Positions 7,175 to 30,774 are shown, numbered from the stretch's first letter. The stretch: DNA of 64,000 nt from Bacteroidota bacterium (GCA_030679145.1 JAUXTU010000015.1:121190-185189); one strand, 5' to 3'. A program made the numbers and translations. The notes: generated by a model not told the origin, from the letters alone.

Positions 7175-7242
7175 AAATTGACAAAAAACAAAAATTTTAA
7201 CTAATGTTACTCTCTACGAGTCGTAGACAAAACAAAAAATCG

Positions 7243-7370: not shown

Positions 7371-7431
7371 CCAATTCTGCGCCGCGTCGAACCATTTAAT
7401 AGATTTGTACGTACCGTCAGTTATTAAAGTA

Positions 7432-11803: not shown

Positions 11804-11832
11804 TTGACAAAAAGAATAATATATCTTAATTT
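11804..11832 (+). promoter_or_regulatory. candidate sigma-70-type promoter for the Rrf2 gene
   Basis: TTGACA (11804-11809), a 17-nt spacer, then TAATTT. It sits ~25 nt upstream of the ATG at 11854. Confidence 0.3.
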
Positions 11833-11853
11833 CAGAGTAAAATATCCGAAACT

Positions 11854-12270
11854 ATGAGCGTTCTTTTTAGCCGTCCCTGTGAATATGCGTTACAAGCAGT
11901 GTTATATCTTGCTCAAAAACGAGAAGGAGAAATGACATCTGCCAAGGAATTAACTTCAAAATTAGATATTCCGTATCATTTTATTTCTAAAATTTTACAG
12001 GATCTTACGTATAAAAAACTTTTATATTCGCAAACAGGTCCTACAGGAGGCTTTGCGCTTGCAAAGTCGCCCAAAAAAATTTTATTTCTTGATATTGTTG
12101 AAGCTATTGATGGGAAAGATTATAAAACAAATTGTGTTATGGGATTTTCTGAATGCGGAGGAGAGAAAGTCTGCGCAGTTCATGATAAATGGAAACTTAT
12201 CAAAGAAAATATCCACAACATGTTGGTAAGCAAAAACATATTCGAAATGGCGAAAGAAATGAATCGTTAG
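11854..12270 (+). CDS. Rrf2 family Fe-S transcriptional regulator (NsrR/IscR-like)
   Basis: N-terminal wHTH of the Rrf2 family. C-x6-C-x5-C cluster-ligand motif (CVMGFSECGGEKVC). It lies at the head of the nos locus. Confidence 0.7.
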   Translation: MSVLFSRPCEYALQAVLYLAQKREGEMTSAKELTSKLDIPYHFISKILQDLTYKKLLYSQTGPTGGFALAKSPKKILFLDIVEAIDGKDYKTNCVMGFSECGGEKVCAVHDKWKLIKENIHNMLVSKNIFEMAKEMNR

Positions 12271-12370
12271 TAATAGAAAGGTTATTTGTCAAAAATTTTT
12301 ATTCGACGAACTATTAGTAATACACAATTTTGCATATCATAATTTTGGAGTAAATATTCTGAAATTAAAT

Positions 12371-12384
12371 AGAATTATAATTCT
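12371..12384. promoter_or_regulatory. perfect 14-bp palindrome AGAATTATAATTCT immediately upstream of the DUF2249 start codon
   Basis: Read directly from the sequence. It is self-complementary. Confidence 0.3.
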
Positions 12385-12387
12385 GTA

Positions 12388-12624
12388 ATGAATAATCTCC
12401 AATCAAAAACAATAGATGTCCGAAACATTCATCCTTCTCAAAGACATTCTTTAATATTTGAGATGTTTGATGCACTTGCCGGTGGAGAATCAATTGAACT
12501 TGTGAATGATCACGAGCCACGCCCGCTCTATTATACTTTTTTACATGAGCGAACAGATAAATTTCAATGGGAATATCTGGAATCTGGTCCAACTGTTTGG
12601 AGAGTTCGGATTAGAAAACATTGA
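12388..12624 (+). CDS. DUF2249 domain protein
   Basis: 78 aa. This family is typically associated with denitrification and NO-response loci. Confidence 0.55.
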   Translation: MNNLQSKTIDVRNIHPSQRHSLIFEMFDALAGGESIELVNDHEPRPLYYTFLHERTDKFQWEYLESGPTVWRVRIRKH

Positions 12625-12809
12625 AAACAATAAAATAATTGAATTTTTCAAAATTTAAAAAACCGTAACGAGATGTCACAAGCAATAAAAACCTTTCAAA
12701 AACGCCGCTAAAGGTATGAATAGGTTTATCAAAGCTGAAAAAATATTCTTCAATATTTATTATTGGGAATTAAAACCTACAAACAATGCGGAAATTCTTC
12801 AAAATTAAA

Positions 12810-12827
12810 TCAGATTAGTTAATCTGA
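12810..12827. promoter_or_regulatory. candidate operator: 8-bp perfect inverted repeat TCAGATTA-GT-TAATCTGA ~40 nt upstream of the flavoprotein gene
   Basis: Read directly from the sequence. Confidence 0.35.
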
Positions 12828-12866
12828 AATAGGCATAATTTTTGCAGAGTTTATGGAAAAAACTGT

Positions 12867-14768
12867 ATGACCGACAAATACCCTCTAAAAGTTCCTGATA
12901 TAGAATTTTGGAAGAATCTCGTTCCCTGTCAAATCGGTTGCCCGATTCATACTGATGCCGGACGTTATGTGCAGCAAATTGGCGAAGGGAAGTATAAGGA
13001 AGCATATCTCACCGCGCGGTCTCCAAATCCATTCGCAAGCGTTTGCGGACGCGTCTGTGCGGCTCCGTGTGAAGACTGGTGCCGCCGTGGAAAAATCGAT
13101 GCGCCCGTTTCCATTCGAGCTTTAAAACGTTTTGTAACTGATAAATTTGGAATAGAATCTCTTGAGCCGGATACGGTCAATGCACTATTGAATGGTGAAT
13201 CCGATGCAGGAAATAAATGGCGATGGCATCTTCCGATACAAAATGAAAAAAGAAAAAATATTGTTAAAAACAAGAATGTAGCAGTTATCGGTTCCGGTCC
13301 AACGGGTGTTTCGTGTGCACACGATCTTGCATTAATGGGTTACACCGTAACAATTTTTGAAGCAACCTCGGTTGGCGGAGGAATGCTTCGCCACGGAATT
13401 CCTGAGTATCGTCTTCCCCGCACCTTAATAGATAAAGAAATTGACAAAGTAAAATCCTTAGGCGTTACGATACAATACAACACTCCACTTACTGAAAAAT
13501 TTGGACTGAAAGAATTAAAGAAACAAGGGTACGATTCGGTCTTCATTTCTGTTGGCACACAGAAGGGGCGGGATATTAATATTGAAGGATCAAATCTGGA
13601 TGGTGTTGTAAAAGCGATTGATTATCTACTCAACATCAACAACGGATATCGTGTCAATCTTGGTAAAAAAGTGTTGGTGATTGGAGGCGGTTTTGTGGCA
13701 TTCGATGCAGCACGATCGGCGTTACGTGCAACATCCGAATCTGATACAACTATACACGAAGCGGTTGATGCGGCGCGTGTTGCACGACGATCCGGTGCAG
13801 AAGAAGTACATATTGCAAGTTTAGAATCATTTGCAGAAATGCCCGTACTACGTTCCGTGCAAGGATATGAAGAATTTGAAGAAGCCAAACGTGAGGGTGT
13901 TGTGTTTCATCCTCAGCGCGGTCCCAAAAAATTCATCGGGGAAAATGGAAAATTGAAAAGAGTTGAATTTATCGGTGTGAAAAAAACATATGATGAGAAT
14001 GGAAAATTCAACCCTGTATTTGATGAATCACTGACAGAACGTTTTGATGTCGACACGGTGATCCTTGCAATCGGTCAAAAAACTGATCTTTCGTTCATTG
14101 TCGCTTCCGATAAGGTTGAAATATCTCCAGGCGGATTTCTAAAGATCAATACTGAAACACTTGAAACCACAGCTCCTGGAATTTTTGCAGGGGGAGATGC
14201 AGCGTTCGGTCCCAGAAATATCATTGAATCTGTTGCTAACGGAAAGAAAGCAGCTCTTTCTATCGATGAATTTTTGAGCGGGACAACTGCAACAACGTAT
14301 TTCGATCTCTCTATCGAAAAAATTCCCACCAGCAGATTCACCCGTCCAGAAGATTTTGAACAATACACCCGTGAAGCTCCGCCGACAATAGATTTAAATC
14401 GTCGGACAGGGATATCAGAAGTAGAAATTGGCTACACGGAAGAACAGGCGAAGCGACAGGCTGAACGATGTCTATCATGTCATGTACAAACAATTTATGA
14501 TGCAGATAAATGCGTGATGTGTAACCGTTGCGTGGATGTTTGTCCTGAATACTGTTTGAAGCTTGTTCCGTTGAACGAATTGGAAATTGATACAGCAATT
14601 AAAGCACAATTGGTTGAACACTATAATATCGATCCATATTCACCCGCCAGTGCAATGATCAAAGATGATGAAACATGTATTCGATGCGGATTATGTGCTC
14701 TGCGATGTCCGACCGATGCGATGACAATGGAGGTCTTCTATTATGAAGAACATGAACAATTCAAATAG
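12867..14768 (+). CDS. GltD-like NAD(P)H-dependent Fe-S flavoprotein oxidoreductase with C-terminal 2x[4Fe-4S] ferredoxin domain
   Basis: N-terminal Cys cluster as in glutamate synthase small subunit (CQIGCP, CGRVCAAPCEDWC). Two dinucleotide-binding GxGxxG motifs (VIGSGPTG, VIGGGFVAFDAA). C-terminal CxxCxxCxxxCP x2 (CVMCNRCVDVCP, CIRCGLCALRCP). Confidence 0.7.
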   Translation: MTDKYPLKVPDIEFWKNLVPCQIGCPIHTDAGRYVQQIGEGKYKEAYLTARSPNPFASVCGRVCAAPCEDWCRRGKIDAPVSIRALKRFVTDKFGIESLEPDTVNALLNGESDAGNKWRWHLPIQNEKRKNIVKNKNVAVIGSGPTGVSCAHDLALMGYTVTIFEATSVGGGMLRHGIPEYRLPRTLIDKEIDKVKSLGVTIQYNTPLTEKFGLKELKKQGYDSVFISVGTQKGRDINIEGSNLDGVVKAIDYLLNINNGYRVNLGKKVLVIGGGFVAFDAARSALRATSESDTTIHEAVDAARVARRSGAEEVHIASLESFAEMPVLRSVQGYEEFEEAKREGVVFHPQRGPKKFIGENGKLKRVEFIGVKKTYDENGKFNPVFDESLTERFDVDTVILAIGQKTDLSFIVASDKVEISPGGFLKINTETLETTAPGIFAGGDAAFGPRNIIESVANGKKAALSIDEFLSGTTATTYFDLSIEKIPTSRFTRPEDFEQYTREAPPTIDLNRRTGISEVEIGYTEEQAKRQAERCLSCHVQTIYDADKCVMCNRCVDVCPEYCLKLVPLNELEIDTAIKAQLVEHYNIDPYSPASAMIKDDETCIRCGLCALRCPTDAMTMEVFYYEEHEQFK

Positions 14769-15516
14769 TTTTGCAAGTGGGATAACGAATGCAAAACGAG
14801 TTGTTTTGTTGATCGTATTGGCGTTGCTCGTCCAAACGTCTCAAGCGCATCACGGAAAAGATTTTCTTGTCGCATCATCGTGCACAACGCCGCATGAGGG
14901 GTCGCTGTGCGCACATTTCAATACACAGTATTTTTCTGAAAACCATTCTTCAGAATCATTGATGCTTTTTTCTTCTGGATTGATCTATGGACTTACCGAT
15001 GATATTGGACTTGAGTTCCATTCGCATTTTAACACAATGTCTTCATCTACACATGTTGAAGCGTTAGCACTTGAAGCTCGGTATAATATTCTTTCAGAAG
15101 CAGATGAACATTCCTCTCTTGATGGAACAACAAATCCATTTTCGTTGGCAACATCTCTGGAATTTGAAAAAGGAATAGTGGGACATCCCAGTGTTCTTGA
15201 ATCGCGATTAATTATTGGAAAAGAATTTGGATTTATAATGCTTGTCGGGAACTTGGTTGTGATGCAGGAATTTGAAGAAGGACAACATCCGGAAACGCAA
15301 TTTGTGATTGGGATGAAGACCATGATTACAAATAGTATCGGCATGTTGGTTGAACTCTTGAATAACAATCATCACACGGAAGGGACGCAATTAAGTCTTG
15401 GATGTTCAATTGCCTTGATGAAAAAATTTGATGTTACGATCGGAACCAATTTTATAAATCAGAATCATGGAACAATGATCTCATCGTTCCAAAGCATGAT
15501 GATGTACACATTCTAA
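14743..15516 (+). CDS. His-rich secreted protein, possible small outer-membrane beta-barrel; function unknown
   Basis: Signal peptide (VVLLIVLALLVQTSQA). Multiple His (HHGKDF, HSHF, NNNHH). It ends in the aromatic residue F. The start overlaps the upstream gene. Confidence 0.4.
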   Translation: MKNMNNSNSFASGITNAKRVVLLIVLALLVQTSQAHHGKDFLVASSCTTPHEGSLCAHFNTQYFSENHSSESLMLFSSGLIYGLTDDIGLEFHSHFNTMSSSTHVEALALEARYNILSEADEHSSLDGTTNPFSLATSLEFEKGIVGHPSVLESRLIIGKEFGFIMLVGNLVVMQEFEEGQHPETQFVIGMKTMITNSIGMLVELLNNNHHTEGTQLSLGCSIALMKKFDVTIGTNFINQNHGTMISSFQSMMMYTF

Positions 15517-15547
15517 AACGCTAAGTTCATACATACAGGAAAATATT

Positions 15548-16090
15548 ATGAAAGAAACAGAGTCAACCAACTCGCCCAATAAAACGGAAAAAGAAAAAAA
15601 CTCCCGCCGCGAATTTCTGCAAAAAGTCGGCGTAGGAAGTATTTTGCTTAGTGCAGGCGCAACAGGATTTCAATCGGTAAGAGCACTTATTCCCGATGTT
15701 CTCTACGAAGCATCCGAGCGGTTTAAGGTTGGACATCCCACACAACTTTCTGAAGGAGTAACATTTATAGAAGATCGGCGACTCTATGTGTTCAAAGAAG
15801 GAAGGTCTTATTATGCGATCTCGGGAGCGTGTACACATCTTGGCTGTACTGTTAAATACACAAAATTGAATCAACCAAAAGATATTGAGGTTGACGGATT
15901 AACCAAGAAGATCAATTTCGAATTTCACTGTCCATGCCATGGTTCAAAATTCTATGCAGATGGAACTAACTTTGCTGGTCCTGCTCCCCGTCCGCTGCGA
16001 TGGTATAAACTAGAACAATCTCCTGATGACGGGCAACTGATAGTGGATTTAGGCGAAGAAGTTGAACAAAATTTTCGGTTAACAGTATAA
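15548..16090 (+). CDS. Rieske [2Fe-2S] iron-sulfur protein with Tat signal
   Basis: Twin-arginine motif SRREFLQKVGVG. Rieske boxes CTHLGC and CPCHGS. Confidence 0.8.
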   Translation: MKETESTNSPNKTEKEKNSRREFLQKVGVGSILLSAGATGFQSVRALIPDVLYEASERFKVGHPTQLSEGVTFIEDRRLYVFKEGRSYYAISGACTHLGCTVKYTKLNQPKDIEVDGLTKKINFEFHCPCHGSKFYADGTNFAGPAPRPLRWYKLEQSPDDGQLIVDLGEEVEQNFRLTV

Positions 16091-16114
16091 ACGATCTTTA
16101 ATTCGGAGCGGACA

Positions 16115-17440
16115 ATGCAATTTTTAGAACAAATAAAGAAAATCTATAATAAACTTACATGGACATGGAATCCGGGAAGCGAAAAAGAATCCGGTGATGC
16201 TATTGTAAAAAATATTCTGCTTCATTGGTTTCCGAATAAGATATCGAAGAAAAGTTTATCGTGGAATTATTCATTCTACCTCGGCACAATTTCATTTATC
16301 CTTTTTTTGATCTTAACAATTACCGGAATGATTTTAATGTTCCTCTATGTCCCGTCGGTAGAACGCGCTTATAGTTCTGTAAAGGACATTGAGTTTGTAG
16401 TTGCATTCGGATGGCTCTTACGTTCGGTGCATAGAATATCTGCACATTTGATGGTAGCGATTGTTTTTCTTCATATGGTTCGAGTCTTTTTAACAGGATC
16501 ATATAAAAATGGAAAATCAATCGGTTCCAATCGCCCGACAAACTGGATCGTTGGTATTATTTTATTGCTTTCTACACTGTTGCTCTCATTCACGGGTTAC
16601 TTATTACCGTGGGATCAATTGGCATATTGGGCAATTACCGTTGGAACGAACATTGCAAGTTCTGCGCCAATCGTGGGCGAAAAAATTCGATTCTTTCTTC
16701 TTGGCGGCAATACAATCAATCAGAACGCGCTCATTCGATTTTATGTGTTGCATGTATTTTTCTTACCCGTGCTCGTTCTGTTTTTATTCTTCTACCACAT
16801 GTGGCGCATCCGTAAAGATGGCGGATTAGCGGCTGCCGACAATGAATCACTGAATCAAAAACCAGAAAATATTGCACCGGTAAAATCTAAAACATATTCG
16901 TTGCTTGGTATAACAAAAGGAACAAGCGTTCACGTGCAGACAACAATGGTGAACGAAGAAGAAAATTCAGTCTCATCAGCACCACACTTAATTCGCCGTC
17001 TCTGGTTGGTGACCCTTGCAACGACGGCTGTGACAATTTTATTAGCGATTTTTTTTGCTGCTCCGCTAGAAGAAGCGGCTAATCCATCGGTGACACCGAA
17101 TCCGGCCAAAGCACCGTGGTATTTTCTCTGGTTGCAGGAAATTGTTACCGATACAACCCTTAAACTTGGATTCATCACTATTAACGGTGCATTTATTGGC
17201 GGTATCATTTTGCCAACGTTTCTCATTGGTCTTGCAATCTGGTGGCCGTACCGTGATCGATCCGGATTGAACAGTGTTGGAGTGTGGTTCTCTCCCGAAC
17301 GAAAAAAACAAAATTACACATTCATCGGAATCTGTATAATTATCATCATCTTTACCATCATTGGAACATTTTTGCGGGGACCATATTGGAATTTCTACTG
17401 GCCTTGGGAATCGTGGCCGATGATGCCTGTGAAATTTTAA
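16115..17440 (+). CDS. cytochrome b (b6 + subunit-IV-like fusion) of a Rieske/cyt b complex
   Basis: 441 aa polytopic membrane protein. Conserved His pairs in helices (SVHRISAHLMVAIVFLHMVRVF; YVLHVFFLP). PEW-like segment (LPWDQ). Confidence 0.75.
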   Translation: MQFLEQIKKIYNKLTWTWNPGSEKESGDAIVKNILLHWFPNKISKKSLSWNYSFYLGTISFILFLILTITGMILMFLYVPSVERAYSSVKDIEFVVAFGWLLRSVHRISAHLMVAIVFLHMVRVFLTGSYKNGKSIGSNRPTNWIVGIILLLSTLLLSFTGYLLPWDQLAYWAITVGTNIASSAPIVGEKIRFFLLGGNTINQNALIRFYVLHVFFLPVLVLFLFFYHMWRIRKDGGLAAADNESLNQKPENIAPVKSKTYSLLGITKGTSVHVQTTMVNEEENSVSSAPHLIRRLWLVTLATTAVTILLAIFFAAPLEEAANPSVTPNPAKAPWYFLWLQEIVTDTTLKLGFITINGAFIGGIILPTFLIGLAIWWPYRDRSGLNSVGVWFSPERKKQNYTFIGICIIIIIFTIIGTFLRGPYWNFYWPWESWPMMPVKF

Positions 17441-17480
17441 CTGAATTATTATTTCCACACGATTATAAACGAGATGAGCA

Positions 17481-18698
17481 ATGAACCATAAGAATATGAA
17501 GCAGAAATTAGAGTTTGTTATCAAGGATAAAATCTTTATTAGCATTGCCAGTATTATCTTTTTACTCGTCACAGGGTACATTGTTTTTAATTATCTGACA
17601 CCTGAGTGGAAGATGTACCAACAGGATTTTACATCGGTAGTGGAAGAAAAACTTGGTGTTGATCGAGCAGCAACTGTTCGTGGCGGACTTCAACAAATTT
17701 ATGTAAAAGATCTTGAGGTCACAGATCGTTGTATTACGTGCCATATGGGTATGGAATGGAAGGGAATGGAAAATGTTGAACAGCCGTTTCGTTCTCACCC
17801 CAAAGAGATCTTGGCAAATCATCCAATCGATAAATTTGGCTGTACAACTTGCCATTCGGGGCAAGGCTATGCAACGGATATGAATTCAGCGCACGGATTC
17901 TCAGAACACTGGGAAGACCCGCTGCTTGGCAAAGAATTGTCCGATTTTTACGTCGTGAGCAATAAAAAAGCGATGATGGAAGTGAACTGCAACAAGTGTC
18001 ATCGCTACGAAAAAGAGACAAGGGGAATGGATTTCTTGAACAGGGCAAAACAACTTGTGAACGAAAAAGGCTGCCGTGCGTGTCATGTTATTAACGGACG
18101 CGGAGGAACCGTGGGACCGGATTTAACATACGAAGGTGAAAAATCTCCCGAACAATTCAACTTTGAACGGATAAAAGGTTTTACATCGATGTTTGCGTGG
18201 CACAGCGCTCATTTTAAGAACCCAAAAGAACTTGTTGCAGAAACAGTGATGCCGAATTTTAATTTCACTTCAAACGACGCCCAGGCGTTATCGTTACTGG
18301 TGATGAGTTGGAAAAAAGCAAAGATCCCCGTTGATTATATTCCTTCGAATAATTTTAAAGATGTGCCAACACAGGAAGAATTGGAAAAAGAAGAACGAAT
18401 GAAGAACGGTCCGGGCGCCTTTTTTGTAACAAAGAACTGCTTTGTTTGTCATTCGGTTTCATCGCTTGGTGTGGAAGCAGCAGCACAAATTGGTCCAGAC
18501 CTTGCACTTGCCGTGGAAGATGTTCAATCCCGATTTGGCAGAACGCTCGATGATTTCTTGATGAAACCGACCGGAACAATGGAGGTGGTACTTTCGACAA
18601 TGATTCCGTTGACAAAAGAAGAACGATTAGAAGCGATAGAAAAATTGCGTCAAGCCTATGAAATAAAGAAACGAGAAAAAGCTGTATCGAAAAAATAA
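17481..18698 (+). CDS. membrane-anchored pentaheme c-type cytochrome
   Basis: N-terminal TM helix. Five CxxCH motifs (CITCH, CTTCH, CNKCH, CRACH, CFVCH). Confidence 0.75.
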   Translation: MNHKNMKQKLEFVIKDKIFISIASIIFLLVTGYIVFNYLTPEWKMYQQDFTSVVEEKLGVDRAATVRGGLQQIYVKDLEVTDRCITCHMGMEWKGMENVEQPFRSHPKEILANHPIDKFGCTTCHSGQGYATDMNSAHGFSEHWEDPLLGKELSDFYVVSNKKAMMEVNCNKCHRYEKETRGMDFLNRAKQLVNEKGCRACHVINGRGGTVGPDLTYEGEKSPEQFNFERIKGFTSMFAWHSAHFKNPKELVAETVMPNFNFTSNDAQALSLLVMSWKKAKIPVDYIPSNNFKDVPTQEELEKEERMKNGPGAFFVTKNCFVCHSVSSLGVEAAAQIGPDLALAVEDVQSRFGRTLDDFLMKPTGTMEVVLSTMIPLTKEERLEAIEKLRQAYEIKKREKAVSKK

Positions 18699-18734
18699 GC
18701 GCATTATTTCACAACCAACTAAAGGAGGATTTCT

Positions 18735-20570
18735 ATGAAACAAAAAATGTCTGCATTACTCTTCATCGTTATTGCAATCGCAATGCTGATCGGCTGCGGC
18801 GATGATAAAAAAGGACGTGCCGGTGCCCGATCTGATGTACAAGAAGCGGCACAAAAGACATATGTTGCACCAGGAGATCTGGACGAGTATTACGTTTTCA
18901 AATCCGGCGGACATTCCGGACAAGTGTACGTGTACGGCATTCCATCAATGAGACATATTTCCACAATCCCGGTCTTTACACCATACCCGGCTACTGGATA
19001 CGGGTTTGATAAAGAATCAAAAGAAATGCTCGGAGGATTTACGTGGGGCGATGCGCATCATCCCTCCATCAGTGAAACCGATGGAGATTACGACGGGCGA
19101 TGGTTGTTTATTTCTGACAACGCTAACAATCGAATGGCTCGAATTGATCTGCGTGATTTTAAGACAAAGGAAATTTTTGGACCGATTCCAAACGTATCGG
19201 GAAATCACTGTTCATCGTTTGTAACAGAAAACACCGAGTATGTGCTTGCCGGTTCTCGTTTTTCCATTCCGCTCCCTCGCGGCAGATATGAAAAGATTGA
19301 AGACTATGCCACAAAATTTAATGGAGTGGTTGCAGGAATTAATGTTGACAAAAATTCAGGAAAAATGACTCTCGGATGGCAGGTTTTAATGCCGCCGTTC
19401 AATTACGATCTTGGCGATGCGGGAAAAGGACCGAGCAAAGAGTGGGGTTTCTGGACATGCTATAATTCAGAACGGGCAATCGGAAAATTAGAAGTAACCT
19501 CAACACAAAAAGATCGGGATTATGTTGTTGCTGTCAATTGGAAGAATGCAGAAAAGGCGATCAGCAACGGTAAATTTAAAATGATCGGCGGTGTGAAAGT
19601 GATCGATCCTAAGGATGTTAACGATGTTGTGTTTTTACTCCCCGCAGCAAAATCTCCGCATGGCGTCGATATCAGTCCCGATGGAAAGTACATCATTGCC
19701 AGCGGAAAATTGCAGAGTATCACTACCGTTTTTAGTTTTGAAAAAATGTTGACCGCCATTGCGCAGAAGAATTTCTCCGGAAACGAAGATGGAATAAATG
19801 TTCTAAATTATGATGCCGTTAAAGATGCGGAAGTGAATGTTGGATTGGGACCGCTTCACACGCAATTTGACGATCAGGGATATGCCTACACATCATTGTT
19901 TGTTGAAAGTGCTGTTGCTAAATGGAAGCTTGGATCGTGGGAGGTTGTTGATAAAATACCGGTTGCATACAACATCGGACATCTTACAGCAGCAGAAGGA
20001 GATACAAAGCATCCTGATGGTAAATATCTTATCGCTCTCAATAAATTATCGCACGGACGGCATTTAAGCGTTGGTCCTTCGCAGCCGGAAGCATCGCAAC
20101 TGATCGATATCAGCGGTGAAAAGATGGGTTTGTTGTACGATGCTTTTACAGAGCCAGAACCGCATTATGCTCAGATCATCAAAGCGGACAAACTTAAACC
20201 AATTGAAGTGTATCCGAAAGAAGAAAATAAACATCCGAAAGCGATCTGGGATTTAAAAGATTCAAAGGTTGTGCGTAACGGAAAGAACGTGGAAATCTAT
20301 GCCATTGCTGTTCGATCCAGTTTTGAACCCACGAAGATTGAAGTGAATAAAGGGGACAAAGTGACGATCTATATGACGAATATCGAACAAACAACCGACG
20401 AACTGCACGGCTTTGGTTTGAATGAATACAATATCAACGTTGTCATCGACCCCGGTGAAACAAAGGTTATTGAATTTATTGCAGACAAAGCGGGCGTGTT
20501 TCCATTCTATTGCACTAACTTCTGTTCTGCACTTCATCAAGAAATGCAAGGTTATATGCTCGTGAAGTAA
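18735..20570 (+). CDS. nosZ: nitrous-oxide reductase, clade II (Sec/lipoprotein type)
   Basis: Lipobox LIGCG signal peptide. Conserved N-terminal YVFKSGGHSGQVYVYGIPSMR motif. C-terminal CuA site CTNFCSALHQEMQGYM. 611 aa. Confidence 0.9.
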   Translation: MKQKMSALLFIVIAIAMLIGCGDDKKGRAGARSDVQEAAQKTYVAPGDLDEYYVFKSGGHSGQVYVYGIPSMRHISTIPVFTPYPATGYGFDKESKEMLGGFTWGDAHHPSISETDGDYDGRWLFISDNANNRMARIDLRDFKTKEIFGPIPNVSGNHCSSFVTENTEYVLAGSRFSIPLPRGRYEKIEDYATKFNGVVAGINVDKNSGKMTLGWQVLMPPFNYDLGDAGKGPSKEWGFWTCYNSERAIGKLEVTSTQKDRDYVVAVNWKNAEKAISNGKFKMIGGVKVIDPKDVNDVVFLLPAAKSPHGVDISPDGKYIIASGKLQSITTVFSFEKMLTAIAQKNFSGNEDGINVLNYDAVKDAEVNVGLGPLHTQFDDQGYAYTSLFVESAVAKWKLGSWEVVDKIPVAYNIGHLTAAEGDTKHPDGKYLIALNKLSHGRHLSVGPSQPEASQLIDISGEKMGLLYDAFTEPEPHYAQIIKADKLKPIEVYPKEENKHPKAIWDLKDSKVVRNGKNVEIYAIAVRSSFEPTKIEVNKGDKVTIYMTNIEQTTDELHGFGLNEYNINVVIDPGETKVIEFIADKAGVFPFYCTNFCSALHQEMQGYMLVK

Positions 20571-20577
20571 TTTTAGA

Positions 20578-20606
20578 TAGCGGGATGAATATGTTTCATC
20601 CCGCTA
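20578..20606 (+). terminator. stem-loop (attenuator/terminator) directly after nosZ
   Basis: TAGCGGGATGAA-TATGT-TTCATCCCGCTA is a 12-bp perfect stem followed by a T-rich tract. The RBS AAGGAG and the ATG of the next gene follow. Confidence 0.55.
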
Positions 20607-20627
20607 TGTTATTCTTAAGGAGTTATT

Positions 20628-21263
20628 ATGCAGCAATATTTAGAAAAAGCAACATCATTTTTTGAAATACCGATTGATATGCGGAGTCGTTTTATCATTA
20701 TCCTTGCCGCCGCTATGCTTATACCATCATTCTTTACTCCGCTCTGGGTAATGACGATGTATTCCAATCAATTTCCAGACGGGTTGGTTTTGAATATTTT
20801 TTCCTATAAACTTGAAGGCGGGAAAACTCCAAATCAAGATGACTTGAAGGAAATCAATTCGCTAAACCATTATATCGGTATGCGCCCGTTGATCGATGAT
20901 GATTTTACGGAATTTAAATGGATCCCATTCGTCATCGGCGGAACAATCCTTCTTGCGCTGCGTGTTGTTGTTCTGGGAAAAATGTCGAAGCTGGTAGATC
21001 TGTTTGTGATGTTCTCATACTTTGGTCTGTTTTCGTTATGGAGTTTTTATTATAAGATGTACATTTACGGTCACGAACTTGATCCTACTGCGGCAATAAA
21101 AGTTCCGCCATTTACACCGCCAATGTTCGGGCATCAAACAATGGCAAATTTTGAAGTATATAATTACCCTTCAACAGGTTCATTTTTTATTTCCGTGATG
21201 CCTCTGTTGTTATTGGTAGCTATGTGGCTATCGCGAAAAGCGTGGTTGGCAAAGCAGAAGTAG
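20628..21263 (+). CDS. nos-associated integral membrane protein (NosB-like position)
   Basis: 211 aa with about 4 TM helices. It is located between nosZ and nosD. Confidence 0.4.
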   Translation: MQQYLEKATSFFEIPIDMRSRFIIILAAAMLIPSFFTPLWVMTMYSNQFPDGLVLNIFSYKLEGGKTPNQDDLKEINSLNHYIGMRPLIDDDFTEFKWIPFVIGGTILLALRVVVLGKMSKLVDLFVMFSYFGLFSLWSFYYKMYIYGHELDPTAAIKVPPFTPPMFGHQTMANFEVYNYPSTGSFFISVMPLLLLVAMWLSRKAWLAKQK

Positions 21264-21266
21264 CAT

Positions 21267-22073
21267 ATGAATTTTCCAAAACCAATTATTACTCGTGAAC
21301 ACGGATCGTGGGCAGTGCTTTTTGTACCGATGCTCATTGGTGTGGTATATGCCGGAAGTTTTTCAATAAATATTCTTTTACTCGCATGTTCTGCATTGGG
21401 AATTTTTTTAAGTTATGCCCCAATCCATTCAGTTCTTCGCGAATTCAGCGGAATTTCTCAAGGAAACGAAAAAGTCCGCGCTTCCATTATTTGGGCAATT
21501 ATTTATGTGTTCGCAGGGATCTTATTCATTATTCCTCTTTTTCTTCAAGGATATTATCATCTTATAGCATTTGCGGTGTTGGGTGCTACATCATTCTTCG
21601 GGAATTATTTTTTAACAATTAAAATTCAAAAATCAATTGTCAGCGACTTAATTGCGATTGCGGGATTGACGTTGAGCGCACCAAGCGCATATTATATCGC
21701 CACCGGATTGTTCGATGTTAATGGAGCAGTATTATGGATATTGAATTTTCTTTTTTTTGGATGCAGCGTCTTTTATGTTCACATGAAGATCAAGGTCAGC
21801 GCACTTAAAAAAGATCGTTTACCGTTACGTGAAAAACTGACATTGGGAAAATTGAATATTCTTTATCATCTCTTTGTCGTTTCTGTCGTGATCATTCTTT
21901 CGCTGTATCATTATACACCACTAACCGCAACGCTGGCATTTGTTCCAATGTTCGTTCATGCGATATATGGCACAATGAACTTGAGTGGTTCAATCAAATT
22001 CAAAAAACTGGGAATTCTTCTCTTAGCACAATCAATTCTATTTGGAGTGGTGTTGGTGTTTGTATGGTCGTGA
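21267..22073 (+). CDS. nos-associated polytopic membrane protein
   Basis: 268 aa with 7-8 TM helices. Its stop overlaps the nosD start. Confidence 0.4.
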   Translation: MNFPKPIITREHGSWAVLFVPMLIGVVYAGSFSINILLLACSALGIFLSYAPIHSVLREFSGISQGNEKVRASIIWAIIYVFAGILFIIPLFLQGYYHLIAFAVLGATSFFGNYFLTIKIQKSIVSDLIAIAGLTLSAPSAYYIATGLFDVNGAVLWILNFLFFGCSVFYVHMKIKVSALKKDRLPLREKLTLGKLNILYHLFVVSVVIILSLYHYTPLTATLAFVPMFVHAIYGTMNLSGSIKFKKLGILLLAQSILFGVVLVFVWS

Positions 22074-23422
22074 AGAAATCAACATATGTTCTTTTTGCAG
22101 TAATATTCGTCCAATCATTGATTGCCCAGCAAACAATTCAAACATTAATTGAACAGGCACAACCCGGCGACACTGTTATTGTTGATGGAGGAAGATATTG
22201 TGAAGATATAGTAATCGCAAAATCCATACATCTTATTGGAAAACAATCTCCTGTTATTTATGGAACCGGAAAGGGAAGTATTGTTACGATTCTTGCTCCT
22301 TGGTGTACAGTATCGGGATTTGTAATAGAACATAGCGGTAATATGCTTGTCAATGAAGACGCAGGAATTCTCTTGAAGTCGGACCATAACACTATTCGCG
22401 ACAACAGACTCAGCGATATTCTTTTTGGGATATATCTGATGCAATCAGATTCGAATATTATCGCATTCAACAAAGTGACCGGTCGATCGACTCTTGACCA
22501 AGGCGAACGTGGGAGCGGGATTCATCTCTGGAATTCCAATTATAATATGTTGGAGCACAATACAATTTCCGAAACACGCGATGGCTTTTATATCCAAAAC
22601 GCCAATCATACGCTCATTCAGGATAACGAAGTGTATCATTTGCGATATGGACTGCATTATATGTACGCCGATTCAAATACATTTTTGCGAAATACATTTC
22701 GGGACAATATTGCCGGTGCGGCGATTATGTTTACGCGAGGCATCGTGATGAAACATAATGTGTTTTTACGGAATCGTGGATTTTCTTCCTATGGAATGCT
22801 TTTACAAGACTGTCATTATTCCATCGCCGATTCGAACATTTTCTCCGATAACGTAACCGGAATCTTTTTTGAATCATCCACGAATAATCTTTTCCGCAAT
22901 AATATTGTTGCTCGAAACGATTTGGCCCTGATGATGTTCCAAAACGCCATTCATAATACCTTTACGGAAAACAACTTTATCGATAATTTGAATCCATTGA
23001 CTATTGTTGGAAGGCGAACAGAATCGTTGTGGAGTTTGAACGGCAGAGGCAATTACTGGAGTTCGTACGACGGGTACGACATTGATAATAATGGAATCGG
23101 CGATGTGCCGATGAAGGTTGAGAATGTCTTCTCGTATCTTGAAGGAAAGAATGCCAATGTACGGCTTTACTTATACAGCCCTGCGTCACAAGCATTGGCA
23201 GTTTCGGCGAAAGCTTTTCCGATATTGGATATTTCAGGTGAGCGTGACGAATATCCGTTAATGGAGCCAGTTCCATTAAAATGGTTTACTACAATAATGA
23301 GTGATGATGGTAAGAGAGCAACTAAACCAACAACGGCTTCATTTATTCCATGGCTGATGCCTATTGTGATTTCAATTGTGATCGTATTTGTGCTTCGTAT
23401 TCGAAAGAAAAAATTATTATGA
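22064..23422 (+). CDS. nosD: NosD, periplasmic parallel beta-helix copper-processing protein
   Basis: Signal peptide. Repeated right-handed beta-helix motifs (NxxxxN/D repeats: DNRLSDILFGIYL, HNTISETRDGFYI, DNEVYHLRYGLHY...). C-terminal TM helix. Confidence 0.75.
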   Translation: MVVKKSTYVLFAVIFVQSLIAQQTIQTLIEQAQPGDTVIVDGGRYCEDIVIAKSIHLIGKQSPVIYGTGKGSIVTILAPWCTVSGFVIEHSGNMLVNEDAGILLKSDHNTIRDNRLSDILFGIYLMQSDSNIIAFNKVTGRSTLDQGERGSGIHLWNSNYNMLEHNTISETRDGFYIQNANHTLIQDNEVYHLRYGLHYMYADSNTFLRNTFRDNIAGAAIMFTRGIVMKHNVFLRNRGFSSYGMLLQDCHYSIADSNIFSDNVTGIFFESSTNNLFRNNIVARNDLALMMFQNAIHNTFTENNFIDNLNPLTIVGRRTESLWSLNGRGNYWSSYDGYDIDNNGIGDVPMKVENVFSYLEGKNANVRLYLYSPASQALAVSAKAFPILDISGERDEYPLMEPVPLKWFTTIMSDDGKRATKPTTASFIPWLMPIVISIVIVFVLRIRKKKLL

Positions 23423-24135
23423 TCGTTGTCGAACATCTAACGAAGCAATATGGCAAGTTTACTGCAGTAAACGATGTATCGTTTACTGTAAAACAAGGAG
23501 AAGTCTTTGCATTTCTCGGTCCCAACGGAAGCGGTAAAACTACAACGTTAAAATCCATTGTTGGTCTTAATATTCCAACGTCCGGTTCAATACATGTTCA
23601 TGGAATTAATGTTCGTACACATTCAAAAGCTGCGAAACAGTTTATGAGTTATCTGCCTCAGCGGGTGATCTTTCCTGAAACGCTTACTGCACGCGAAGTT
23701 GTTCGTTTCTACAGCTCGCTTCGGAATATCTCTAAATCTGTTGCGGATGAAGCTTTATCGAATGCAGGCTTCAATGGATTCTCCGATAAACCGGTTCACG
23801 AATTTTCAGGCGGAATGATCCAGCGACTGGGTATGACAGTTATTGCAATTCCGGATTCGCCGATCTTGTTATTGGATGAACCGACGGCAAATCTTGATCC
23901 TCAAGGGGTGAAACAATTTCGTGATTTTATTACGGAACAAAAGGCAAAAGGGAAGACTATTATTTTCTCCACCCATTTACTTGCGGAAGCCGAACAGCTT
24001 GCGGATCGTGTCGCAATTTTTGTTTCGGGTAAACTTGCAGCACTCGAATCAATTGATAATCTCCGAACGACCTTTCTCAAAGAAGGAACGATCGAAGATC
24101 TTTATTTACACTATGTAGGGAATTCACAAAAATGA
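23419..24135 (+). CDS. nosF: NosF, ABC transporter ATP-binding protein
   Basis: Walker A GPNGSGKTT. ABC signature SGGMIQRL. Walker B LLLDEP. The ATG at 23419 overlaps the nosD stop (ATGA). Confidence 0.75.
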   Translation: MIVVEHLTKQYGKFTAVNDVSFTVKQGEVFAFLGPNGSGKTTTLKSIVGLNIPTSGSIHVHGINVRTHSKAAKQFMSYLPQRVIFPETLTAREVVRFYSSLRNISKSVADEALSNAGFNGFSDKPVHEFSGGMIQRLGMTVIAIPDSPILLLDEPTANLDPQGVKQFRDFITEQKAKGKTIIFSTHLLAEAEQLADRVAIFVSGKLAALESIDNLRTTFLKEGTIEDLYLHYVGNSQK

Positions 24136-24158
24136 AAAAAAATGAATTTTTTTTGCCC

Positions 24159-24264
24159 ATTGTCATTTCGAGCGAAGCCCCGAAGGTGCAAGCGAGAAAT
24201 CTCATATTTATATTTGAATCAAAAAACGAGATTCCTCGTCGCTCCGCTTCTCGGAATGACATTG
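24159..24264. repeat. ~105-bp imperfect palindromic element between nosF and nosL. Its arms, CATTGTCATTTCGAGCGAAGC and GCTTCTCGGAATGACATTG, belong to the GTCATYC repeat family.
   Basis: Inverted arms read directly from the sequence. An internal second dyad GAGAAATCTC / GAGATTCCTC is present. Confidence 0.55.
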
Positions 24265-24293
24265 AATATGGATTTTTAAGAAGTCTCATTCCG

Positions 24294-24710
24294 ATGACTC
24301 TAATGTTTCTTTTCATTTCCTGTGGACCGAAAGAGATACAACCGATAGAACTTTTCCCGGAAGATGAATGTGCAAGCTGCCGAATGACTGTCTCTGATCC
24401 TGCGTTTGCATCAGAGATCATCAATAAGGATGGTTCGGTGGTAAAGTTCGACGATCTGCGGTGTTTTGAAAATTATCGCAAAGATCATAACATTGATGAT
24501 GTTGAAAAAATATTTGTCAAAGATTATGAAACAAAAGCATGGATACCGTTTGGAAAAAGTATTGTCATTCAAACAGGGATTGAAACGCCGATGGGTTCAG
24601 GACAAATTGCCGTTGCAGATCAACAGCGTGCAAAACAATTGAAAGAACGATATCCTCCAACACTTGCAGCAATGGAAGGCGATGCATGCTGCGCGCCTAA
24701 GAAAAATTAG
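24294..24710 (+). CDS. nosL: NosL copper chaperone lipoprotein. The start is taken at MTLMFLFISCG; the track ORF starts at 24132 and runs through the repeat element.
   Basis: Lipobox FISCG. NosL signature CASCRMTVSDPAFASEI...KFDDLRCF. Confidence 0.7.
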   Translation: MTLMFLFISCGPKEIQPIELFPEDECASCRMTVSDPAFASEIINKDGSVVKFDDLRCFENYRKDHNIDDVEKIFVKDYETKAWIPFGKSIVIQTGIETPMGSGQIAVADQQRAKQLKERYPPTLAAMEGDACCAPKKN

Positions 24711-24718
24711 GGATCCCT

Positions 24719-25549
24719 GTGAACCATTTACTCATTACTCGCATTGCGCGCCAAGAATTATTAGTGAACATCCGCAACAAATGGACAATTATTTTTGCAG
24801 TTGTCTTTGGTGTTCTTGTCATTGGCATTTCATATATCGGAATTATGGCCGAAGGTTATTCCGGTATGCAGAATTTTACACGCACATCAGCCAGTATGCT
24901 TAATTTAGTGTTGTATATCGTTCCGCTTGTTTCGCTGATCATGGGAACACTCAGCTTTACCAGTGATCGCGGAACAACTGAACTGCTTTTTTCTCAACCG
25001 GTATTTCGAGGTGAAGTTCTTCTTGGAAAGATACTCGGTTTATTTTTGTCTCTTTTACTTTCTATGATCGTTGGTTTTATCGTTGCCGGAGGAATAATTG
25101 TTACTGTTACGGGATCCGAAGGTTTGCTGCAATATTTACTGTTTGTGCTGTTGTCATTATTGCTTGCATTGGTATTCCTTGTTGTGGCCGTGATGATCGC
25201 AACGTCAAATAAACGGAAATCAAGATCGTTCGGTATAGCTCTCTTTGCATGGTTCTTTTTTGTATTGTTTTATGATTTGATCATTCTCGGAGTTTCACTG
25301 TTATTCAAAGGTCAAACTGCGAATACTATTCTTTTCCTTTCACTCTTCGGTAATCCGGTCGATATGGTGCGTATTGCAGCGTTGATCATTCTTGATAATG
25401 TTTCGATCTTCGGCGCCGCTGGTGCCGCATTGCTTCGATTTCTTGGCGGAAGCGGAACGAGTGTTGCATTGTTGATTGGATCGTTGTTGGTGTGGATCGG
25501 TATTCCTATCGTTGTCTCTCATCGTTTGTTGAATAAACAAGATATCTAA
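24719..25549 (+). CDS. nosY: NosY, ABC-2 type permease
   Basis: 276 aa with 6 TM helices. It sits immediately after nosF/nosL. Confidence 0.7.
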   Translation: MNHLLITRIARQELLVNIRNKWTIIFAVVFGVLVIGISYIGIMAEGYSGMQNFTRTSASMLNLVLYIVPLVSLIMGTLSFTSDRGTTELLFSQPVFRGEVLLGKILGLFLSLLLSMIVGFIVAGGIIVTVTGSEGLLQYLLFVLLSLLLALVFLVVAVMIATSNKRKSRSFGIALFAWFFFVLFYDLIILGVSLLFKGQTANTILFLSLFGNPVDMVRIAALIILDNVSIFGAAGAALLRFLGGSGTSVALLIGSLLVWIGIPIVVSHRLLNKQDI

Positions 25550-25564
25550 TTCAATCCTGATTCA

Positions 25565-26749
25565 ATGAAAAAATTTCTTCTTGCGGGCGTTGGCGTTATA
25601 CTACTTTGTATTATTGGTACAATCATATATTATTTCAAGTCCGATGATTATGCAAATGATCAACATTTTAAAAACGGAGAGACAGAAGTATTCATTTCAA
25701 TTCCACCCGGCGCGACATATCAATTGTTTCAAGCAGGAAATTCATTAGGTGTTGCTAAAGAAATGACAGTTACCGCAGCAAACCCATACTGGCTTTCCGC
25801 AGGAAATTATTTTGTTAAGGTGGCACTTCATCAAAAAGAATATCTCTACCCAATTTCACTTACAGGATTCCGATGCGGACCTGATAATGATGGTTCGTTC
25901 ATTGTTAATTGCAGAGAAGCACGACCCGAACAACCACCGGTATTACTGCAAGAAATTCCATCATTCAAATATATTCCAAGCGGTTCATTTCTTTTTGGTG
26001 ATAAACAACTTCCAACAATACCTCATTACGTTTGGTTAACGACGTTTTATATTTCACCATTCGAAATCACTAACCAAGAATTTCGTCAATTTCTAAATGA
26101 CCCAAATGGATATTCGAATCAGGAGTGGTGGACTGAAGCAGGAAGATTATGGAAGACTTCGAATAAGACGCAGGTTTCAGCAGCATTATTAAAAAACAAT
26201 AAGGATTACCAGCGATTCGGTCAGCCAATGCAGCCGGTAACATGGGTGAATTGGTTTGAAGCGAACGCATTTTGTAAATGGTTGTCGAAGAAGATAGGGA
26301 ATGGACATTGGTTGTATTCGCTTCCGAATGAAGCCGAATGGGAAAAAGCATCGCGAGGTCCTGATAATGAAGATTACAGCCTTACAATGACGATCAGTGA
26401 TGACCAAATGAAACTATTTAATTGGAAAAAAAATCCCGATGATTCAATCCCTGTGTATGATATTGAATCAACACACATGAAATATAAACCGAACCGTTAT
26501 GGTCTGTTCCATACAACGGGCAATGTCAGCGAGTGGACAATGTCTATCCATCGTTCATTCAATAAGAAAAATCCATTTCAGTTGGATTCACGCAATCTTG
26601 AAACGAGCGAAGGAGAAAGAGTGATCCGCGGCGGTTCGTGGTACAGCGCAAGCATTGCAAATCTTTACATTTCATATAGAGATGCATTCCCGCCACAGCA
26701 TTCCACGCAAGATGTTGGTTTTAGAATTATTGCAAAATTGTTACCATAA
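25565..26749 (+). CDS. FGE-sulfatase (SUMF1/formylglycine-generating enzyme) family protein with N-terminal TM anchor
   Basis: C-terminal FGE-fold motifs (VTWVNWFEANAFCKWL, LPNEAEWEKA, RGGSWYS, GFRI). It lies directly downstream of nosY on the same strand. Confidence 0.65.
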   Translation: MKKFLLAGVGVILLCIIGTIIYYFKSDDYANDQHFKNGETEVFISIPPGATYQLFQAGNSLGVAKEMTVTAANPYWLSAGNYFVKVALHQKEYLYPISLTGFRCGPDNDGSFIVNCREARPEQPPVLLQEIPSFKYIPSGSFLFGDKQLPTIPHYVWLTTFYISPFEITNQEFRQFLNDPNGYSNQEWWTEAGRLWKTSNKTQVSAALLKNNKDYQRFGQPMQPVTWVNWFEANAFCKWLSKKIGNGHWLYSLPNEAEWEKASRGPDNEDYSLTMTISDDQMKLFNWKKNPDDSIPVYDIESTHMKYKPNRYGLFHTTGNVSEWTMSIHRSFNKKNPFQLDSRNLETSEGERVIRGGSWYSASIANLYISYRDAFPPQHSTQDVGFRIIAKLLP

Positions 26750-26764
26750 GAAAGAAATCACATT

Positions 26765-27145
26765 ATGAAAAACGACATCACCACTCGTCGGGATATTGAG
26801 CAACTTGTGAACACGTTCTATGATAAAGTGCAACGGGATGCGATCATCGGTCCGATCTTTATCCATGTTGCCAAAGTCAACTGGGACCATCATCTTCCGA
26901 TAATGTATTCATTTTGGGCTGGTATTCTGTTGGAGGAGCGCACCTATGTTGGTAATCCAATGATGATCCACGAAGCATTAAACAAGAAATCTCCGCTTTT
27001 GCAGTATCACTTTGATTCATGGGTACGATTATTTTATGAGACAGTCGATGAACTCTTTGCCGGGAGGAATGCAGAGTATGCAAAAGAGCAGGGCTCGCAA
27101 ATAGCGCAATTGATGCATCACAAAATGAGGGAGTCAGAACAATAG
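26765..27145 (+). CDS. truncated (2/2) haemoglobin-like globin
   Basis: 126 aa helical protein with a truncated-globin-like pattern (F..FY..V..D..IGPIF; W..H). Confidence 0.5.
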   Translation: MKNDITTRRDIEQLVNTFYDKVQRDAIIGPIFIHVAKVNWDHHLPIMYSFWAGILLEERTYVGNPMMIHEALNKKSPLLQYHFDSWVRLFYETVDELFAGRNAEYAKEQGSQIAQLMHHKMRESEQ

Positions 27146-27200
27146 AGAAATGATGAAAAAATTGCTCTGCGTCGTCGTTTCGTTCTCTTGTAAGAAAATA

Positions 27201-27584
27201 TTACAATGCTTCAACGACGCGGAGCAACCGTTGCCGCACTTCTTCCGAAAGCGGCTGAAGTGCGGGATTGGAGATGATCGTATCCATGACGATCGGATCG
27301 AATGCAGAAACAGTTACCCATCCGTTCTGTTCGTACACAAGAACATTGCAGGGAAGAAATAAACCGATCTCTTTTTCTACCTGAAGAGTTTTATTTGCAA
27401 ATTGTGGATTACACGCGCCTAAAATTGTATAGCGCGGGATATCAACGTCAATTTTTTTCTTTAAAGTTTCCTTCATGTCGATGGTTGTCAAAATGCCGAA
27501 TCCTTCTTTCTTCAATTCTTCGGTAACTTTTTCGATCGCTTGTTCGAATGAAAGCGTAACTGTTTTTGAAATTCCGTAGCTCAT
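27201..27584 (-). CDS. DUF302 domain protein
   Basis: 127 aa. Pattern ...FGILTTIDMKETLKKK...IPRYTILGACNP... is typical of DUF302. Confidence 0.55.
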   Translation of the reverse strand: MSYGISKTVTLSFEQAIEKVTEELKKEGFGILTTIDMKETLKKKIDVDIPRYTILGACNPQFANKTLQVEKEIGLFLPCNVLVYEQNGWVTVSAFDPIVMDTIISNPALQPLSEEVRQRLLRVVEAL

Positions 27585-29701: not shown

Positions 29702-29983
29702 TCAGCGACGGATAGTTTTTTTTGGATATTTTTTATCCAGCTGAATGACAGCGAATAGATTTTTTTTGGCTTTTGCAGAGAGAGTTGGCGCAGGATAGGA
29801 GCGGTATAAAAAGACAGTCTTCTTTAACGAATCGAGCAGGGCAGAGCAATTCTTGCACCCTTTGATATGTGCTTTGATCCTGCGGCACGATTCGGAATCC
29901 AATTTTGAATCCAGATTATCGCATAAGTGTTCGTACACTTTTGAGCAGGATAGCGTGTGAATATGGATGTGTCGTTGTTTCAT
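29702..29983 (-). CDS. zinc-binding (ZAS/zf-HC2) anti-sigma factor, RsrA-like, cytoplasmic
   Basis: HxxxCxxC motif (HIKGCKNC) with upstream Cys residues. 93 aa with no TM. It sits immediately downstream of the ECF sigma gene. Confidence 0.55.
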   Translation of the reverse strand: MKQRHIHIHTLSCSKVYEHLCDNLDSKLDSESCRRIKAHIKGCKNCSALLDSLKKTVFLYRSYPAPTLSAKAKKNLFAVIQLDKKYPKKTIRR

Positions 29984-29984
29984 G

Positions 29985-30581: not shown

Positions 30582-30774
30582 TGATATGATGCAGTGAAAC
30601 GAAAAAAAGATGCTTTTGCTTTCAAAGAATAAAGAAAAATGGGTGCGGATGCAAGAAGAGATAAATAGATTACTTCGCAGCGAAGACGTTGGGAACAAGA
30701 TGAAAACTCAAAACCTAACTCACAGGTGCGTTGACAGTTTACACCTCAGAAGTTGAGTAGATGGGTGGCGCTTA

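Follow-up and report, generated by a model that had tools for sequence, protein, structure and literature searches.

Gene content, electron-transfer module and variable accessory genes of a clade II nitrous oxide reductase locus in a Bacteroidota bacterium

Organisms with a clade II nitrous oxide (N2O) reductase, NosZ, are the main biological N2O sink in soils and wastewater. Between positions 11,854 and 27,145 of a 64,000-nucleotide stretch of Bacteroidota DNA (GCA_030679145.1, JAUXTU010000015.1:121190-185189; the whole stretch is called the window below), a complete clade II nos locus had been predicted from the sequence alone. This original prediction regarded the gene order and a flavoprotein gene of the locus as unusual, and proposed a self-contained respiratory chain to N2O under nitric oxide (NO) control. 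The locus raises the question of whether it is an exception or a member of a common cluster type, and of how electrons would reach its NosZ. We find that it is, with a probability of about 85%, an ordinary clade II nos operon, belonging to the type that Ignavibacteria-like Bacteroidota, KSB1 and many Acidobacteriota have in common, with the electron-transfer mechanism proposed below.

Open reading frame (ORF) calls, with Pfam and NCBIfam identification, gave 16 consecutive plus-strand ORFs between 11,854 and 27,145, one more than the 15 co-directional genes first counted; every gene that had been named was recovered at its position on that strand (Table 1). From the flavoprotein gene to the globin gene, intergenic gaps do not exceed 57 nt, and gaps of 117 and 242 nt set the Rrf2 and DUF2249 genes apart. 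None of the 16 genes carries a NosR or NosX domain according to Pfam.

The NosZ protein (611 amino acids, lacking a haem c domain) belongs to clade II: it scores 909.4 bits on the Sec-dependent equivalog model TIGR04246 (cutoff 625) and 499 bits on the twin-arginine translocation (Tat)-type model TIGR04244, under that model's cutoff. Its N-terminus, MKQKMSALLFIVIAIAMLIGC, has the lipobox LIGC and no RR motif. The lipobox pattern was matched in 95 of 120 close NosZ homologs, and most of the misses listed also finish in a Gly-Cys pair. Alignment with solved NosZ structures placed all seven CuZ histidines (H108, H109, H158, H309, H375, H416 and H477), the possible loss of which had been raised with the prediction, and the CuA ligands H558, C593, C597, H601 and M604. 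The CuA motif CTNFCSALHQEM lies at residue 593; it and the lipobox were read directly from the sequence, as foreseen. Relatives of this NosZ at more than 80% identity number in the thousands.

Upstream of nosZ lie the genes for an electron-transfer module. The Rieske protein has a Tat motif, RREF, at residue 20, and the cluster motifs CTHLGC at 95 and CPCH at 128. The cytochrome b joins a b6-like four-helix part to a subunit-IV-like part; it also matches the ExtP/ExtQ and cytochrome b6 models of NCBIfam, and the best PDB matches of its N-terminal part are cytochrome b6. Its haem ligands H106, H120, H213 and H228 align with those of b6 and have b6-like spacing. A haem ci was considered and rejected, the YCLGG motif of b6 being aligned with FYLGT, with Leu in place of Cys. 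The cytochrome c has CxxCH motifs at residues 84, 121, 170, 198 and 320 and one N-terminal transmembrane helix; it had no close relative among solved structures. The Tat-Rieske protein, fused cytochrome b and five-haem cytochrome c of the prediction were thus found by direct reading of motifs and domains, and with the genes and ligands present the description of a complete clade II locus with its own module holds.

Two membrane proteins had been assigned to the NosB position, directly after nosZ. The first (20628-21263) had no significant family match in Pfam or NCBIfam; it contains both published NosB motifs, LNHYIGM and YGH (PMC9697520), and is identified as NosB on that ground. The second turned out to be a separate YwiC-like protein (PF14256). 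Downstream of these, profile matches bore out nosD, nosF, nosL, nosY, the gene of the formylglycine-generating enzyme (FGE) family and the truncated globin gene. The likely start of NosF is at 23419 (M24 of the translation), overlapping the NosD stop codon. Homology of NosL, as judged from tblastn query starts, and its lipoprotein signal FISC begin at residue 55, and its start is for that reason likely to be at about 24294.

To place the locus among its relatives, the window proteins were mapped by tblastn on the 80 closest genome loci, one genome per species, from Ignavibacteria-like Bacteroidota, KSB1 and several Acidobacteriota classes. Loci with at least 6 kb upstream (n = 41) or at least 6.5 kb downstream (n = 48) were informative for the respective side. 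The block flavoprotein-Rieske-cytochrome b-cytochrome c was found upstream of nosZ in 40/41 loci, and NosB-(YwiC)-NosD-NosF-NosL downstream in 47/48, with NosY next in almost all, the loci belonging to two phyla or more; the order D-F-Y-L was found in 0/48. The two features singled out as unusual, the order D-F-L-Y and the flavoprotein-ferredoxin gene inside the cluster, are therefore the rule in this subclade. Other genes had a patchier distribution: a YwiC-like gene was present in 21/48 loci, an FGE-like gene in 25/41, Rrf2 in 8/35, DUF2249 in 3/35 and the globin in 1/41. Judged from these comparisons, Rrf2, DUF2249, the YwiC-like and FGE-like proteins, the globin and a predicted outer-membrane barrel, described below, are variable accessories. 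The single rare gene of the cluster is that for the barrel, a predicted small outer-membrane channel.

Comparison with known systems leads to the same picture. Genes for Fe-S, Rieske, cytochrome b and cytochrome c proteins and nosB have already been listed as characteristic of clade II clusters (PMC11096178, PMC9697520, PMC13122619). With the clusters of cultured N2O reducers (PMC11096178 Fig. 5; PMC13122619 Fig. 2A) the locus shares a Sec-type NosZ, nosB directly downstream, the absence of nosR and nosX, the upstream Fe-S/Rieske/cytochrome b/cytochrome c genes, nosDFY and nosL. Nothing essential differs; the locus adds the barrel, DUF2249, the globin and a palindromic insert. The nos cluster of Melioribacter roseus, of the Ignavibacteria lineage (Mros1101-1109; PMC3534657), has in common a clade II NosZ, a proposed Rrf2-family regulator and genes for a cytochrome c and an Fe-S protein. 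Its order is cytochrome c-NosZ-L-D-F-Y and no Rieske or cytochrome b genes are listed there, whereas the present locus has D-F-L-Y and a full Rieske/cytochrome b/cytochrome c block. The genome paper of Ignavibacterium album reports NosZ and NosLDFY and describes the organism as lacking a cytochrome b-Rieske complex (PMC3362086); a metagenome-assembled genome assigned to this species (locus L006) has the full flavoprotein-Rieske-cytochrome b-cytochrome c block.

The mechanistic model that we apply to the locus is that of Wolinella succinogenes, with its dependence on NosB and a Rieske/cytochrome b quinol oxidase. This organism is said, in work attributed to Hein et al. in 2017, to respire N2O by means of a NosGC1C2H module, along with NosB and with a complex of the Rieske/cytochrome bc type. 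The differences are that none of the 16 genes resembles NosG, NosH, NosC1 or NosC2, that NosZ is without the haem c domain, and that the bc-type complex of the locus is encoded within the nos cluster, with the flavoprotein gene before it.

From the gene identities, cofactor ligands, export signals and synteny established here, we infer the direction of electron flow, the partner of the flavoprotein and the regulation as follows. Menaquinol would be oxidised by the dedicated Rieske/b6-like cytochrome b complex, and electrons would pass through the membrane-anchored five-haem cytochrome c to the CuA and CuZ centres of the lipid-anchored, periplasmic NosZ, which would reduce N2O to N2. NosDFY and the lipoprotein NosL would assemble the copper-sulfide centre. 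NosB, stated to be essential (PMC9697520), would be the membrane partner required in clade II. The flavoprotein would be the fifth part of the electron module, and a conserved one; most likely it connects NAD(P)H with the membrane complex on the cytoplasmic side. The transcript probably begins at a conserved palindrome within the 242 nt that precede the flavoprotein gene, and how much nosZ transcript is made relative to the accessory transcripts is probably determined by a conserved hairpin that follows nosZ. We put forward both this NAD(P)H link and NO control as hypotheses.

Several observations weigh against this scheme. The flavoprotein has no signal peptide, hydrophobic segment or membrane anchor, and scores under all curated equivalog cutoffs (PRK12771 was best, with 418 against 516; gltA gave 292 against 472). 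The hairpin after nosZ could end transcription, making two units of the cluster. Nor is the palindrome confined to loci with an Rrf2 gene: L006, L021 and L029 have it, and a search within 10 kb gave no such gene there. Finally, certain bacteria with a clade II NosZ consume N2O without growth (PMC9697520), so that energy conservation is not guaranteed.

The role of the flavoprotein deserves closer discussion. This cytoplasmic protein of 633 amino acids consists of a Fer4_20 domain (the two-cluster domain of the GltD/DPD type), Rossmann folds for FAD and NAD(P), and, at the C-terminus, a 2x[4Fe-4S] ferredoxin domain with two CxxCxxCxxxC motifs; its Cys patterns correspond to two N-terminal and at least two C-terminal clusters. 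In public annotations it is labelled a glutamate synthase beta-like or formate dehydrogenase beta-like oxidoreductase, and a search of a limited set of papers found no description of it in nos clusters. Among solved structures, subunits of the NfnA/NfnB type (9n5u, 4ylf, 5jca) and related modules of bifurcating enzymes come closest to it. With the NfnB/GltD/SudA family to which these structures belong it shares the N-terminal two-cluster domain and the FAD and NAD(P)H Rossmann domains; it differs in the added C-terminal ferredoxin domain, in the lack of an NfnA-type partner gene, and in that its genomic partner is the Rieske/cytochrome b complex. The fixed position of the gene, directly before the Rieske gene in related loci, suggests that the flavoprotein is a partner of the bc-type complex. 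Another function, which we consider possible though not probable, is that the flavoprotein gives no electrons to N2O reduction and serves instead in general redox balancing or, acting by way of NosB or the YwiC-like protein, uses NAD(P)H to activate or repair NosZ reductively, as a functional stand-in for the NosR/NosX system of clade I. The protein is cytoplasmic, its four or more Fe-S clusters could form a wire, an NAD(P)H module is not needed for quinol oxidation by the Rieske/cytochrome b complex, and clade II clusters are without nosR and nosX (PMC9697520), no domain of either type being present among the 16 genes. However, a position directly 5' of the Rieske gene in 40/41 loci favours a bc-type partner over NosB, and the locus has no NosR-like membrane domain by which electrons could be carried across the membrane.

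The control of the operon was considered next to its gene content. The adjoining Rrf2 regulator, itself part of the original prediction, has three cluster-type cysteines, C94, C101 and C107 (spacing Cx6Cx5C), followed by H110. Its score on the NsrR equivalog model is 39.3 bits (cutoff 182), lower than on the SUF and IscR-type models, and it falls far under the cutoffs of all three equivalogs NsrR, IscR and RirA. The palindrome TCAGATTAGTTAATCTGA, a candidate operator, is the sole exact match to TCAGA-N8-TCTGA in the window. Sites with at most one mismatch number three in all, two of which lie within the nos regulatory region, and the palindrome is enriched between -48 and -67 relative to the flavoprotein start, similar sites (again with at most one mismatch) occurring there in loci L006, L017, L021, L029 and L041. 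In addition, a 34-nt segment is repeated with 76% identity at 11821-11854 and 12334-12367, just 5' of the Rrf2 and DUF2249 starts; the palindrome-like site at 11832-11849 falls inside it, and the repeat may be a shared promoter or operator. Scans for sigma-70 promoters and terminators gave matches no more numerous than in shuffled sequences. From the terminator scan the hairpin after nosZ alone was retained, because it is conserved: the nosZ-nosB spacer is significantly structured, folding better than shuffles, in 49/71 related loci. This conservation suggests attenuation or transcript stabilisation, the hairpin being a terminator, an attenuator or an RNA-stabilising element.

That the Rrf2 protein is an NsrR-like NO sensor and the operon NO-responsive, as the original prediction had it, seems rather unlikely to us. 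The cysteines and the following histidine are of the appropriate kind, the gene is adjacent, and the palindrome occurs both near its own start and before the operon. An Rrf2 regulator has been proposed for the Melioribacter nos cluster too (PMC3534657), and genes of the DUF2249 and globin kinds, which the locus also has, are found repeatedly in clusters that respond to N-oxides; the denitrification clusters of Thermus and Haloferax contain DUF2249 proteins as well as truncated globins (PMC6282519, PMC11218638). These points are set against the low NsrR score, exceeded by those of SUF/IscR-type models, the presence of an Rrf2 gene in just 8/35 related loci, and the palindrome in loci devoid of it.

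The gene between those of the flavoprotein and the Rieske protein had been described as coding for a His-rich secreted protein. A signal peptide and 14 histidines are indeed present; the predicted product is, however, an outer-membrane beta-barrel rather than a soluble secreted protein. Pfam gave nothing at E <= 10 and a PDB profile search gave nothing for this 257-residue protein. An AlphaFold2 (AF2) model required an alignment of 43 sequences; a version with 3 sequences had a predicted local distance difference test (pLDDT) score of 36 and was discarded. The model, together with the signal peptide, has 12 antiparallel strands and a C-terminal aromatic residue (F), and its top fold matches are the FapF, COG4313 and KdgM channels. 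From this model, the protein is predicted to be a small outer-membrane channel. The 12-stranded channels FapF, COG4313/Pput2725 and KdgM/NanC have 9 to 12% identity to it, that is, no sequence similarity; the barrel is distinguished from them by its conserved predicted mature N-terminus, HHGKDF, its His/Glu pattern and its nos-cluster context. In the family, H36, H37 and G38 at this N-terminus are invariant or near-invariant, and H93 and H95 stand two residues apart on one strand.

The closest relatives of the locus have no barrel gene and a flavoprotein-Rieske spacing of about 50 to 80 nt; as the flanking genes there nearly adjoin, the barrel gene is taken to be a lineage-specific insertion of about 770 nt. 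Only three close database proteins were found, one identical, one with 55% and one with 44% identity, and the latter two each sit between flavoprotein and Rieske genes. A fourth homolog, with 36% identity, occupies the same interval on a contig that continues into nosZ, and the barrel is found at this position in four lineages only. A profile search among 1.84 billion representatives yielded 99 relatives of 220 to 260 amino acids. One member, only distantly related, is encoded not in a nos cluster but in the neighbourhood of Crp, AhpC and thioredoxin genes. In one barrel-carrying relative (locus L082, positions 1-3792), the region upstream of the Rrf2-flavoprotein unit holds, beyond one intervening gene, genes for a molybdopterin oxidoreductase and a Fer4_11 protein in opposite orientation.

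It is doubtful whether this channel takes up copper or another metal cation for NosZ maturation, as a small passive analogue of the TonB-dependent NosA/OprC. Such a function would fit the 12-stranded fold, the conserved H36, H37 and G38 with the H93/H95 pair, and the occurrence of the gene inside nos clusters of four lineages. Yet the channels best matched in fold are unrelated in substrate, the distant family member is found near thiol-redox genes, and 41/41 related nos loci do without the barrel.

A more far-reaching proposal, to which we would give comparably little credence, joins these elements: the flavoprotein would dock on the cytoplasmic face of the b6-type Rieske/cytochrome b complex and form with the cytochrome c an as yet uncharacterised NAD(P)H/quinol-linked supercomplex dedicated to N2O. 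Such a complex could exploit the large driving force of the N2O/N2 couple, either by flavin-based bifurcation or by passing electrons from NAD(P)H directly to cytochrome c. The abundant Ignavibacteria/Acidobacteria NosZ subclade would as a rule receive its electrons in this way, and in a few lineages the His-rich outer-membrane channel would add copper supply. Most improbable is that the Rieske, cytochrome b and cytochrome c genes, which do encode a full quinol:cytochrome c oxidoreductase and have no second bc complex beside them among the window ORFs scanned, are the organism's general complex III, set next to nosZ by chance: their synteny with nosZ is strict across phyla (40/41 loci), and in Ignavibacterium album the genome paper gives that function to alternative complex III (ACIII), clustered with a caa3 oxidase (PMC3362086).

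At about 17.9-20.6 kb, covering the 3' end of the cytochrome c gene and nosZ, DNA identity to the closest locus, L033, falls from 80-90% to 71-79%, and over the same stretch identity to locus L002 rises from 55-73% to 76-83%. The drop and the rise together point to a recombination patch covering nosZ; this pattern of identities suggests that nosZ was exchanged through homologous recombination and that the cluster is of mosaic ancestry. Between nosF and nosL, a palindromic insert with the terminal arms CATTGTCATTTCGAG and CTCGGAATGACATTG artificially lengthens the NosL ORF by 54 codons. No extra copy of it was found in the window or in related loci.

The FGE-fold protein was considered as a formylglycine-generating enzyme and rejected as such: only the fold is matched, its motif region reads RGGSWYSASIANLYISYRD, without the catalytic copper-binding Cys pair that follows RGGS in that enzyme, and its best PDB matches are non-catalytic FGE folds. 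A second protein with an FGE-sulfatase domain, with a Big_7 domain in addition, is encoded at 31557-32630 on the minus strand and adjoins a pair formed by an extracytoplasmic function (ECF) sigma factor and a zf-HC2 anti-sigma factor (29702-30698, minus strand).

Upstream, the locus is flanked by ribosomal protein genes and malate dehydrogenase, and downstream, on the opposite strand, by DUF302, OsmC, rhodanese and thioredoxin genes. The ORF orf70 (27150-27362) was not retained as a gene: it has neither a family match nor a homolog in L033 and overlaps the opposite-strand DUF302 gene. No further N-oxide reductase was found among the ORFs scanned, from about 4 kb to 52.6 kb of the window, and searches of the window for Rfam families and tRNA genes gave no match. 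Three large ORFs, with 707, 804 and 785 amino acids, are found at 7204-9327 (plus strand) and 50141-54909 (minus strand); those of 707 and 804 amino acids had no Pfam match.

Table 1. Positions in the window of the nos locus genes and associated elements, with the supporting evidence
Feature	Position	Strand	Evidence
Palindrome-like site TCAGAGTAAAATATCCGA	11832-11849		TCAGA-N8-TCTGA with 1 mismatch; ends 5 nt before Rrf2 start codon
Rrf2-family transcription regulator	11854-12270	+	PF02082, 102.8 bits; TIGR00738 superfamily, 102 (cutoff 73)
DUF2249 protein, DrpA-like single domain	12388-12624	+	PF10006, 97.7 bits
Perfect palindrome TCAGATTAGTTAATCTGA, candidate operator	12810-12827		57 nt upstream of flavoprotein start
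NfnB/GltD-like NAD(P)H flavoprotein	12867-14768	+	Pfam; Cys motifs
Predicted 12-stranded outer-membrane beta-barrel	14743-15516	+	predicted fold; homologs
Tat-exported Rieske [2Fe-2S] protein	15548-16090	+	PF00355
Cytochrome b, b6-like and subunit-IV-like parts fused	16115-17440	+	PF00033, 150 bits
Membrane-anchored cytochrome c, five CxxCH	17481-18698	+	Pfam; motif reading
NosZ, clade II (Sec-dependent), predicted lipoprotein	18735-20570	+	TIGR04246; alignment to 1qni and 9f8x; lipobox LIGC at 18
13-bp stem-loop immediately after nosZ	20577-20607	+	hairpin scan
NosB, polytopic membrane protein	20628-21263	+	LNHYIGM at 79, YGHE at 147; directly after nosZ
YwiC-like membrane protein	21267-22073	+	PF14256, 54.9 bits
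NosD	22064-23422	+	TIGR04247, 396.6 bits (cutoff 300); PF05048
NosF, ATP-binding cassette (ABC) ATPase	23350-24135	+	PF00005; position within D-F-L-Y block
NosL copper chaperone	24132-24710 (ORF)	+	PF05573, 35.6 bits (cutoff 24)
Palindromic insert between nosF and nosL, about 107 nt	24158-24264		absent from closest relative L033
NosY, ABC-2 permease	24719-25549	+	PF12679, 88.8 bits; synteny
Membrane-anchored FGE-fold protein	25565-26749	+	PF03781, 129.6 bits
Truncated (bacterial-like) globin	26765-27145	+	PF01152 (Bac_globin), 24.7 bits (cutoff 21)

Overall, the locus introduces no new principle; it is a further case of the cluster type that dominates in uncultured Ignavibacteria-like bacteria. 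What is new, on a small scale, are the predicted barrel, the conserved hairpin after nosZ, the palindrome 5' of the flavoprotein gene and the putative nosZ recombination patch. The barrel belongs to an unannotated family of small (about 240 amino acids), His-rich, predicted outer-membrane barrels that has no Pfam family and includes a nos-linked subgroup. The flavoprotein, nearly always present in clusters of this type in two phyla, seems not to have been studied; its near-universality makes it an obvious target for the question of how such N2O reducers get their electrons.

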